This document shows, piece after piece, positions 55,334 through 59,881 of a stretch of 64,000 nucleotides of DNA. Position 1 is the first letter of the stretch; the number at the start of each line of letters is the position of its first letter. The stretch spans positions 32,001 through 96,000 of the forward strand of contig JBOEGF010000001.1 in NCBI GenBank assembly GCA_050633305.1, written 5' to 3'. The position numbers and the translations under genes are program-made. The notes beneath the pieces were generated by a model, which did no database searches, was not told the origin of the DNA, and saw nothing but the letters and a program-made list of their open reading frames with translations. The DNA comes from Nannocystales bacterium (GTDB lineage: Bacteria > Myxococcota_A > Polyangia > Nannocystales > Nannocystaceae).

Positions 55334-58300
55334 TCAGCGACGAGGTGCCGGCAAGGTTTGCGCGACCAGTTCCCGTGCGCGTATTCGCGCCTGTCGCAAC
55401 GATTCGGGGTCCCCGGCCATCGCCTTGGCATGCGCGTCTTTGAACGAGATCGTGTTCGGGCTCAGCGGCACGTCGTAGGTCGCCCGCTTGTCCCGCAGGT
55501 CGGTTGACTCGTGGACCCGCATCACCAGAGCACACTCGGGCAGGAAAACCGTCGTGCATCGCTCACCCTCACCCACTGCGATGGGCGTGCCGCTGACGAT
55601 CTTGTATCCGCCTGCGCGCGCCTCGAGCGTCAGCGCCGAAGCGGTGGAGCCGATGTCGAACGCGTCACGGGCGACGACGGTCCCGGCGTGGGTCCCGAGC
55701 AAGACACTGTCGCGGATCTCACCACTGTGAACTCGGGCGTCGATCAGCACGCTCCCGGTCACCGTGACGTCCGCGCCGAGCTGGGTATCGCCAACGACGC
55801 GGTTTCCTTGTGCGTCGGGAAACTCGGGGATCTCGGCCAAGGCGCGGGCGATGGTCCCACCGGGTGTGTCGTCGCGCAGGGCACCGAAGAAGGACGCCAT
55901 GCTGTGGTGCTGACCGATGTCTCCCCAATACTGGTCGCCGAAGTCCATCGCCATCAGCTTCACGGGGCGTCCGTGGCGTTGCTCGAACGTTTGCAGCGCA
56001 CCCACGAGTCGCTCGATGACGCTGGGCATGCGCTCGGCGAGCTGGGCCATGGCAGGGGCGCTGCTGCAGGCGGCTTGCCACGCGGCGGACCGCTGTTGTT
56101 CGGGGAGCGCGGCGATGGTCAGCGCGGTGAACAGCTGTGGGTCGAGATCGGGCCGGTCGCCTCGCTGCGCCTCCTCGTCGTGGACGTCGGCGTGGAACGT
56201 CTCGAGAAGGACATCGGCGAATGCGCCGGAGATCGCGATGGAGCCCAGGTTCACGCCTCCGATGAGTGCATCACCGCGACGTTGCAGAATGCCGCTGTCG
56301 GCGAGCTGCGCCATCTGTGAAAGTGGGCGGCGGGGGATGAAGGCGGTCACCCGTCCGTCGGCATCGACACCCACCCAGTCCTTGTTTGCGGCCGTGTCCT
56401 CGGTGATCGGCTGCATCGAGACGAAGCGGACAATGTCGGCGGCGTCGAATCGGGGATCGGAGCCCGCGAGGTCGAGGGTGGGGATCTGGACCTCGTCGCC
56501 CCATTTGACGACCATGCCCTCGAAGCCGCTGCGGCGCAGGTACGCCTCGACCGGTGCGAAGGTCCGCATGGCCAGCTCGACCAGCGATGCCCGCCTGCGG
56601 GTGGGCCCGACGCGGGCGAACGAGTCGATGGCGGGTTTTTGGCCGCATTCCGCTTCGGTGATCGGGGTGGCTCGGGTGCCGCTTCCAAACACGAATGCGA
56701 TGAGGGCTCCTTGGCCGGCGACGTACCGCGGCCGGGCCCGCTCCCACAGCAGGAGCAGGCCGAACGCTTGGTTGACCGGGAGGTCCTCGAAGAAGGCGTG
56801 GGCGTGTGCAGCACCGAAGTCTGGACGCATGGCGTCGAGTTGCCCTTGCCAAAACGACTGGGCGGGCGCGGAACCACACACCGCGCCGACCAGCGCCGCG
56901 GGGGCCTCGGGGAGCTCGCCTGCGAACAGCTGCTGCCCCAGCGCCACGTTGTGCAGGACGGCGTCGCAGAATCGCGTTTCGTCGGCGCCTGCGAGCAGAC
57001 GCCCCAACAGCCCTCCATCGGCCAGACCGAGGCGGACGATGGCATCGGCCCGCGCCGCGGTGTCCGCTTGTGCGTAGATCCGCAGTTGCGGAGCATTTCC
57101 GGAGGGCCGCACGTGGGCGACATCGCCGGATTCGAACGTGATGCGAATGCCGTCGAGCATGTCGATGGCGCGGATCGGCGTGAACCCGTCGTCGGTTGTG
57201 AAGTGCCGCTGAAGCCGCGCCCACAACCGGGTCAGCACGGGGAGGTCGGTGGCGAGCAGCGCCACAGAGTGGCCCTCGATCCCGACCCCAACGAAGCCGT
57301 CGGAGCTTGTGCTGGCACCGCGAAGCTCGGCGCGGGGCATGGCGTACCGTCGCTTCAAGGCGGCGGATCGCGCGGGTTCGATCGCGTCGAGCAGGCCGGC
57401 GCGGCTGTGGCGGGAGGGAAGCGTGTCGACTTCTGCCAACAGGGAACTGCCCCGCTGCTTGGCCTCGGCGGCGATCCGAAGCGCGACCACGATGGGGAGC
57501 GCGGCATCACGGGTGGGGAGCGGGGCGAGCGTGCCTTGCTCGGTCGCGATCGGCGAAGCGTGGAGAAAGCCGCCGTTGGCTTCCCAGCCGACCACGCACT
57601 GTCCGGCCATGTCGTTCATCGCCGCGATGACCCATGGCGAGCCGATGCGGGTGCGTTGCACGCCCACCCGATCGCCGAAGACGGGCTCGACCATGTCGGT
57701 TGCGCTCACGGGAACCGCGACCGCATCGGCGCCCAGCGCCCGAGCGACGAGCACGCCCAGGACGTCTCCGCCGATGAAGCTGACGCGGCCGTCCGCCCCG
57801 ACGGCCGCCACGAGGGGGCGGTCGCTGTCCCCGTCGGTCGAGATGACCGCGTCGATGACCGCACCGTGGGGTCCCTTGGCATTCGCCTCGTCGGCGAGCC
57901 GTTGGAGTGTCGCCAAGCCATCCTCACCCAGGGCTTCGGTGTCGATCGGAACGAACGACGAGGCTCGACCGCAGGGCAAGACCTCCGCGCCGAGTGCTCG
58001 AAGGATATCGGCGATGAGTTCTCGTCCGACCGCGGAGTGCTCGTACAGCGCGACGCGCAGCCCCTGCAAGACGTTGTGCGGGAACGCGTCGGTGTAGCGG
58101 GCGAGGTAGCGGGCGCGTCCTTGGTCCGTCGGGTCCTCGAGCAGAACCGACGCACCCGGCTTGAACCATCCGTCGTCGTCAAAGTGCGACAGCTCGGGCG
58201 GGCGCGCGTATTCCAACTGCCGAGCGCGGGCGACCGCAGCGAGGATCTCGGCCTCGTCGCTCTTGAGCACCTCTCCGCTCGGCGTGTTGAACTTGATGCC

Positions 58301-59881: not shown

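Follow-up and report, generated by a model that had tools for sequence, protein, structure and literature searches.

The window analysed here is a stretch of 64,000 nucleotides from a Nannocystales bacterium (GenBank assembly GCA_050633305.1, contig JBOEGF010000001.1, positions 32,001 to 96,000), and its element of interest is a single open reading frame (ORF) on the minus strand, 59881-55334, which opens with a GTG start and runs uninterrupted for 1515 amino acids (aa). Three domains follow one another in the encoded protein: a type I phosphomannose isomerase (PMI) domain (aa ~10-402, 58676-59854), an alpha-D-phosphohexomutase domain of the phosphomannomutase (PMM) type (aa ~417-962, 56996-58633) and a C-terminal domain of 547 residues, hereafter domain X (aa 969-1515, 55337-56977), whose structure model displays a run of short strands attributed to a beta-helix at aa ~1361-1457 (55511-55801). 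As set out below, X belongs to an unannotated family with the predicted fold and motifs of a nucleoside diphosphate sugar (NDP-sugar) pyrophosphorylase, and it most likely acts as a non-orthologous replacement of the GDP-mannose pyrophosphorylase ManC.

A preliminary description of this DNA had read the frame, correctly as to its continuity, as a type I PMI, a ManB-type PMM and a nucleotidyltransferase fused in reaction order, and profile searches bore out the first two assignments. PF20511 matched aa 13-154 with 90.8 bits (cut-off 22) and TIGR00218 (manA) matched aa 16-357 with 203 bits (cut-off 116.2). Within the mutase domain (aa 419-948), PGM_PMM I, III and IV exceeded their cut-offs while PGM_PMM II remained below (24.3 vs 29.3 bits); all PMM specificity models of NCBIfam were below cut-off, the best being TIGR03990 (139.5 vs 439). 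The PMI motifs QVH (101-103), KPE (136-138) and PHAY (262-265) and the PMM motifs GSHIP (519-523) and DGDSDR (683-688) were found where the description had placed them. In an alignment of 75 fusions of the same architecture, K90, Q101, H103 and E138 of the PMI domain were kept in 74 sequences and H263 and R282 in all 75; we take Q101, H103, E138 and H263 to be the zinc ligands and K90 and R282 to be catalytic. The PMM domain was equally conserved (D683 and D685 in 75 sequences, S520, D687 and R925 in 74, R688 and E767 in 74-75), S520 presumably lying in the phosphoserine loop, D683, D685 and D687 in the metal loop and R925 being the phosphate-binding arginine.

The fusion is not peculiar to this contig. 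A search with the X region, restricted to proteins of 833-2652 aa, returned 148 matches, 120 of which were listed as clusters at 90% identity. Counting the protein of the window, the PMI-PMM-X architecture recurred in 75 of these listed clusters, against 23 with PMI-X and 22 with PMM-X, some of the two-domain forms possibly being contig-end fragments. An assembly artefact or chance read-through is thus ruled out by 74 other clusters that carry all three domains in one chain. Among shorter proteins X stood alone in 107 of 112 further listed matches. The closest named homologues of X are from Nannocystaceae (84-86% within X), and the triple fusion is present in a cultured species, Haliangium ochraceum, where Hoch_4238 (WP_012829333.1) is labelled solely as mannose-6-phosphate isomerase. 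Contigs of one sequencing run, which may be the source sample and hence not independent, span without gaps both the junction of PMM with X (2 differences in 1099 bases) and the end of the PMI domain (0 differences in 276 bases). The PMM-X part was predicted as a rigid two-domain unit (pTM, the predicted template modelling score, 0.90) with a continuous helix over the junction, and the two domains are probably rigidly placed relative to each other in this subfamily.

Domain X could not be recognized by sequence comparison. It had no match in Pfam (E<=0.1), in NCBIfam (E<=1), including the ManC model TIGR01479, or among PDB sequences with single or profile queries (best E 0.62), and PF00483 matched only 5 of 40 X members, at E>=0.096. 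This lack of any library match rules out X as an orthologue, by sequence, of ManC, of the eukaryote-type GDP-mannose pyrophosphorylases (GMPP), of GlgC or of GDP-fucose pyrophosphorylase (GFPP). A structure model computed from 40 sequences (mean predicted local distance difference test, pLDDT, 95.1; pTM 0.94) had as its best fold match the GFPP part of FKP (PDB 9iis; Foldseek E 8.7e-13), which a wide structural search aligned over 393 residues with Z 19.3, root-mean-square deviation 3.9 and 11-12% identity. ADP-glucose pyrophosphorylases (AGPase) and tlr0611 (Z 13.4), ST0452 (12.6), human GMPPA/B (12.4) and VTC1 (12.1) came next, so that ranks 1-8 were all sugar-1-phosphate nucleotidyltransferases or complexes thereof (Z 12.1-19.3); bacterial ManC structures reached Z 9.2-10.8. 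X residues ~380-492 aligned to left-handed beta-helix proteins.

Conservation of residues points in the same direction. E1032, G1066, G1068, R1070, K1082, D1129, K1167 and D1321 of the full chain were kept in 74-75 of the 75 fusions, and in a broader set of 104 X domains (X numbering) R102 was kept in 103, K114 and D161 in 104, K199 in 101 and D353 in 102, with position 64 acidic in 100 (E in 98, D in 2). The G-x-G-x-R...K loop, the metal Asp, the sugar-phosphate Lys and the W-x-D-x-G motif, each present in 101-104 of the 104, align with those of AGPase and ST0452, and the YWGDIGQ of X is closer to FWMDIGQ (GMPPB, VTC1) than to YWEDIGT (AGPase). In FKP, according to the available text of PMC11982464, R80, K89, D136, K187 and H272 are catalytic or metal-binding and D31 reads N1/N2 of guanine; by motif spacing, R102, K114, D161, K199, D353 and E64 of X would be their respective counterparts. 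The same spacing puts Glu, Trp and Asp of X at the fucose-site residues Val137, Phe270 and His272 of FKP, the first and last of which lie near the fucose methyl and phosphate groups (PMC11982464, same available text). By its predicted fold and its motifs X is an NDP-sugar pyrophosphorylase. The nucleotidyltransferase assignment of the preliminary description therefore stands as far as fold and motifs are concerned, but X is an orthologue of neither ManC nor GMPP. It forms an unannotated family of its own, and that such a family most likely replaces ManC was absent from that description.

The proximity to FKP admits the reading that X is a pyrophosphorylase for GDP-L-fucose, or another L-sugar, in a salvage route and is clustered with mannose enzymes for regulation only. 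Besides the fold, the ESM Atlas speaks for it, since the clusters close to X there have PF07959, the family of the FKP N-terminal domain, in 11-25% of their members, and one cluster near Y, a sister family of X introduced below, carries it in up to 100%. However, PF07959 was not detected at E<=1 in any of 40 X and 42 Y members, nor did it match in the genome of the window, and no fucokinase-type domain occurred in 30 X representatives scanned. The Glu and Asp tentatively matched by motif spacing to V137 and H272 would also argue against a fucose site, and a salvage enzyme would leave the mutual exclusion with ManC, described below, unexplained. We regard this reading as highly improbable.

The X family is broadly distributed and repeatedly linked to PMI and PMM. 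A profile search over 1.84 billion representatives yielded 442 matches at E<=0.001 (144 at E<=1e-30), and a FastTree tree of 104 near-complete domains resolved four subfamilies. Among 150 listed representatives, 45 carried PMI and/or PMM in the same chain, in seven domain orders (X-PMM 18, PMI-X 9, PMI-PMM-X 7, PMM-X 5, X-PMM-PMI 4, PMM-X-PMI 1, X-PMI 1), such fusions being found in three of the four subfamilies; a hexokinase-X fusion was also present. We further inspected 63 X loci from species-representative genomes, with record titles that include Myxococcota, Verrucomicrobiota, Lentisphaeria, Planctomycetota, Omnitrophota, Elusimicrobia, Acidobacteriota and one Pacearchaeota. Split operons occur among them, with PMI separate from PMM-X or PMI-PMM separate from X. 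Other recurrent neighbours are few, an NDP-sugar dehydrogenase being encoded in 5 of the 63 loci (L042, L060, L061, L064, L069); its N-terminus, we assume, resembles that of the GDP-mannose dehydrogenase AlgD. Viral contigs held no copy of X or Y.

Several unusual forms of X were encountered in these searches. In loci L010 and L011 and in genera g2 and g258, the N-terminal partner of X is PMI-like yet strongly diverged and scores far under the manA cut-off. X also lies inside giant proteins of 2100-5600 aa (P0237, P0239, P0240, P0253, P0258-P0260, P0262, P0311, P0346, P0351), some of which carry PMM, hexokinase or class II aldolase domains, and Omnitrophota loci contain very long X-containing frames (L065, at least 5211 aa). 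The Pacearchaeota genome record contains an X that stands alone and belongs to the second subfamily (L076:6935-8626).

An indication of the function of X came from its distribution relative to ManC. All 50 genomes of the window's order at >=85% completeness were compared: X was detected in 22 genomes from 3 genera, and the other 28, from 11 genera, gave no X. The 28 X-negative genomes all had a ManC-type match (E<=3.5e-37), whereas 19 of the 22 X-positive genomes had none and no X-positive genome had a clear one, the three others showing either the cupin part only (E 7.9e-4) or weak matches (E 2.4e-27 and 1.8e-25). Fisher's test at genus level gave p 0.003, a value that is descriptive only because related genomes are not independent. 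Two controls in the same 50 genomes, GalU (present in 2) and an NF052502-like enzyme (present in 48), were independent of X, and X as a replacement of GalU is thereby ruled out. The X of the window's genus and that of two checked members of genus g2 belong to different subfamilies; with two X subfamilies in ManC-less genera, at least two acquisitions would coincide with ManC loss. X has probably displaced ManC more than once.

The same trend was observed outside the order. In a phylum sample of 401 genomes, 385 had a TIGR01479 match and 16 had none; with X scored on three candidates per genome, three of the four strong X matches fell in ManC-less genomes and the fourth in a genome with a weak ManC match. 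We then considered, across phyla, 50 X-positive genomes from the 63 loci (leaving out six close relatives, five partial matches, one duplicate and one genome that the phylum sample already contained), of which 29 had no ManC match, 15 a weak or cupin-only match and 6 a clear one. A clear ManC was therefore missing from 44 of these 50, compared with the 385 of 401 with a match in the phylum sample. Gmd, which uses GDP-mannose, was encoded in 21 of the 50, with ManC absent in 10, weak in 8 and clear in 3. We conclude that X is most likely a non-orthologous replacement of ManC as GDP-mannose pyrophosphorylase, which would provide an explanation for genomes that need GDP-mannose but do not encode ManC.

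An active pyrophosphorylase could also differ in specificity or be promiscuous, making another NDP-mannose or an NDP-glucose, with the PMM domain acting as a phosphoglucomutase as well. The acidic residue of the putative base-reading loop, E1032, does not fix GTP as the nucleotide, because the GMPP-like scaffold 8x7s is labelled as a UTP-glucose-1-phosphate enzyme despite a Glu in that loop; a few Y members are named 'ADP-glucose pyrophosphorylase' by the Joint Genome Institute (JGI), and the genome of the window has no Gmd over cut-off. Yet X tracks the loss of ManC and not that of GalU, a clear ManC is missing from 18 of the 21 Gmd-bearing X genomes, fusion with PMI points to mannose, and the genome of the window already encodes GlgC, RmlA and a PF01704 enzyme of the UGPase type. 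Such a different specificity appears improbable to us, if less so than a role in fucose salvage. As regards the PF01704 protein, it belongs to the eukaryote-type UGPase family (G000:C21:89351-90271) in an order where GalU is rare (2 of 50 genomes).

The genome of the window (11.0 Mb, 90 contigs, 92% complete) holds one X. No TIGR01479 match was found in the 92% that the assembly covers, and the fused ORF carries the only type I PMI; the fusion is for these reasons more likely to serve as the main route than as a side branch with a dedicated purpose, and the preliminary description, which had taken the enzyme to be dedicated because a separate phosphohexomutase lies in the window, was probably mistaken on this point. 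That phosphohexomutase is real (11832-13637, plus strand, 601 aa) and is one of three other phosphohexomutases in the genome; it is distant from the fused PMM, which misses it as a tblastn query. Candidate consumers of the product comprise one NDP-sugar dehydrogenase over cut-off and nine PMT_2 and two PMT matches over cut-off. Four GHMP-kinase matches were also recorded.

The NF052502-like control enzyme corresponds in this genome to a 338-aa nucleotidyltransferase (G000:C24:45207-46178, L003) that falls between the MurU and GMPP models, has tlr0611 as its best solved relative, bears a W-x-D motif without the Asp and has an NDP-sugar dehydrogenase 2 kb away. As a replacement of ManC it was rejected, since it does not track ManC loss, although it may still be a second source of GDP-mannose. 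If this enzyme supplied GDP-mannose throughout the order, X could be a non-catalytic or regulatory nucleotide-sugar sensor comparable to GMPPA and the eIF2B subunits, which share its fold; the presence of the 338-aa enzyme in 48 of 50 order genomes and the rigid packing of PMM against X in the model would both suit such a role. Against it, the catalytic-type residues of X are all near-invariant over the four subfamilies, the 338-aa enzyme itself lacks the W-x-D Asp and its best solved relative is labelled as a UTP-glucose-1-phosphate enzyme, and all 28 X-negative genomes keep ManC though 26 of them also have the 338-aa enzyme. A sensor function is, in our view, as remote as one in fucose salvage.

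The most distant full-length match of the X profile (P0368) was used as seed to define the sister family Y, with 842 matches. Its homology to X was established with hhalign (probability 99.95%, E 1e-38, 500 columns), and all 42 aligned members of Y retain the catalytic set of X. Of 377 metagenomic Y loci, 80 were inspected; Y is followed by a type I PMI in 4 of these, fused to a PMM in 1 and next to a PMM in 1. The phylum sample, set beforehand as a test for Y, contained five strong Y matches (E<=1e-68), of which four were in genomes without a ManC match and one in a genome with a negligible match; PMI directly follows Y in two of them. Altogether 7 of the 16 ManC-less genomes carried X or Y; among the other 385, 2 did so, and the ManC matches of both were weak. 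A protein more remotely related to Y (700-770 aa, without a Pfam match; L180:1-2316 in G360, L183:1177-3345 in G259, L181 in G375) directly follows an unannotated ORF that, we presume, carries a sugar-kinase-like motif; ManC is kept in two of these three genomes, so that this relative may have a different activity.

Several observations weigh against X as a GDP-mannose pyrophosphorylase that replaces ManC. The residue correspondences between X and FKP are drawn from motif spacing and not from a residue-level superposition, and FKP, the nearest solved fold, uses fucose-1-phosphate and rejects mannose-1-phosphate (PMC11982464, available text). A clear ManC is kept in 6 of the 50 X-positive genomes, and the four weak matches that were checked were all still best assigned to ManC, with scores of 73-98 bits where the cut-off is 373. 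In the phylum sample, nine of the 16 genomes that lack ManC (G217, G389, G005, G123, G231, G239, G259, G278, G305) have no strong X or Y match, be it through incomplete assembly, lack of a need for GDP-mannose or yet another enzyme. In the genome of the window, the 338-aa enzyme could make GDP-mannose (NF052502 is its best model, with 171 bits vs 440), and no Gmd over cut-off means that no consumer of GDP-mannose of that kind was found there. It is to be noted also that the sampled genomes are mostly incomplete assemblies, in addition to being related to one another.

Taking ManC replacement by X as the preferred reading, we consider it quite probable that the single chain leads from fructose-6-phosphate to GDP-mannose. 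The PMI domain would convert fructose-6-phosphate into mannose-6-phosphate, the PMM domain would move the phosphate to C1 to give mannose-1-phosphate, and domain X would combine mannose-1-phosphate with GTP to release GDP-mannose and pyrophosphate; we infer the activity of each domain, GTP as the nucleotide and mannose-1-phosphate as the sugar. The near-complete retention of catalytic residues (74-75 of the 75 fusions) agrees with the trifunctional chain proposed in the preliminary description, as far as sequence can tell. The emphasis placed there on reaction order and possible channelling was not supported, because seven domain orders and split operons suggest that neither is required. Co-expression and stoichiometry are most likely what the fusion ensures, and the intermediates probably diffuse. 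The rigid PMM-X model allows channelling but does not show it, and we consider channelling rather unlikely; in FKP there is no tunnel between the two sites according to the available text of PMC11982464. If active as predicted, Hoch_4238 of H. ochraceum would be a natural one-chain route to GDP-mannose and could serve as a compact nucleotide-sugar biocatalyst, and annotation would gain a family whose members are currently labelled 'hypothetical protein' or named after their PMI or PMM partner.

Family Y extends these observations to eukaryotes. Its named members are from the diatom Stephanopyxis turris, the oomycete Lagenidium giganteum and Ancoracysta twista; eukaryotes make up 60% of the nearest Atlas cluster, diatoms being the commonest, and many marine Y loci look eukaryotic, some matching MMETSP transcripts. 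The L. giganteum protein (P0483) has an annotated C-terminal Rdx-family domain (PF10262), possibly a fusion created by the gene model. Annotations of brown algae, Thalassiosira and Phaeodactylum contain no mannose-1-phosphate guanylyltransferase according to the accessible sections of PMC5778160, which report the activity for the MPI paralogue SjaMPI4, the one substitute proposed; the statement of a missing enzyme is repeated in what is available of PMC11468063 and PMC9127767. For Ostreococcus and Micromonas, the accessible part of PMC4396506 describes the enzyme as lacking and suggests that an unidentified alternative may be used. One low-expressed canonical MPG-like transcript reported in Fucus (preprint 10.1101/2020.01.29.925107, available portion) weakens the gap. 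We tentatively propose, as a joint claim that we hold to be possible without calling it probable, that X and Y form a third class of GDP-mannose pyrophosphorylases derived from, or ancestral to, the GDP-fucose pyrophosphorylase scaffold, that this class displaced ManC repeatedly in Myxococcota and in PVC (Planctomycetes-Verrucomicrobia-Chlamydiae) bacteria, and that Y is the enzyme reported as absent from diatoms, from prasinophytes and, possibly, from brown algae. The named eukaryotic members sampled were those of the diatom, the oomycete and A. twista. If the proposal is true, Y would supply GDP-mannose for alginate, fucoidan and ascorbate as well as for protein glycosylation in those algae, and it offers a directly testable alternative to the MPI paralogue.

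Around the fusion, a WecB/TagA/CpsF glycosyltransferase (TIGR00696 and PF03808 over cut-off; 59963-60751, minus strand) lies 81 bases upstream on the same strand and also adjoins the fusion in loci L014-L018; it may be co-transcribed, and a link to the pathway is conceivable. Directly downstream, a 229-aa ORF (54516-55205, minus strand) with a signal-peptide-like start and no NCBIfam match is kept in L016-L019. A promoter and terminator scan gave no signal above shuffles, and no RNA data set was among those listed as containing the sequence.

In the literature, no description of the trifunctional fusion, of the Haliangium identifiers or of Myxococcota fusions was found in a search that mostly excluded subscription papers, in keeping with the preliminary description, which knew of no characterized fusion of this kind; nor did we find a paper giving the guanine-reading residue of a bacterial GMPP. 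A survey of the FKP/GFPP family (PMC12732313) does not mention phosphomannomutase or isomerase in its available text.

The closest known system by fold, the N-terminal domain of FKP from Bacteroides fragilis (PDB 9IIS/9IIT, PF07959), shares with X a nucleotidyltransferase core, extra N-terminal elements, a beta-helix and, in matching motifs, an Arg/Lys/Asp/Lys catalytic set with an acidic base-reading residue. It differs in belonging to a family that X does not match, at 11-12% identity, in being joined to a fucokinase instead of PMI and PMM, and, by motif spacing, in its His272 and Val137, which are Asp and Glu in X. A second known system is ManC, or type II PMI-GMP (AlgA, XanB; TIGR01479; 2X5S, 2CU2), which resembles the fusion in its inferred reaction, its pathway position and a fused PMI activity. 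The PMI of ManC is a C-terminal cupin, whereas the fusion of the window has an N-terminal type I PMI; moreover X has no hidden Markov model match to ManC, a weaker fold match to it, and the two are nearly mutually exclusive in genomes. Eukaryote-type GMPP (GMPPB, VTC1, NF052502) has in common with X a core plus beta-helix and the G-x-G-T-R and W-x-D-I-G-Q motifs, but X shows no sequence match to it, is ~190 residues longer and carries large helical insertions. Neighbouring steps of nucleotide-sugar synthesis are also joined in two-domain fusions such as type II PMI-GMP, GMP-PMM and the UGP-PGM of diatoms and brown algae. UGP/PGM is mentioned in the accessible sections of PMC5778160. Compared with these two-domain fusions, the chain described here unites three steps, uses a type I PMI and draws its pyrophosphorylase from another family. 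The chemistry is known, while the three-domain chain is undescribed; the pyrophosphorylase family at its C-terminal end is unannotated and behaves as a non-orthologous substitute for ManC.

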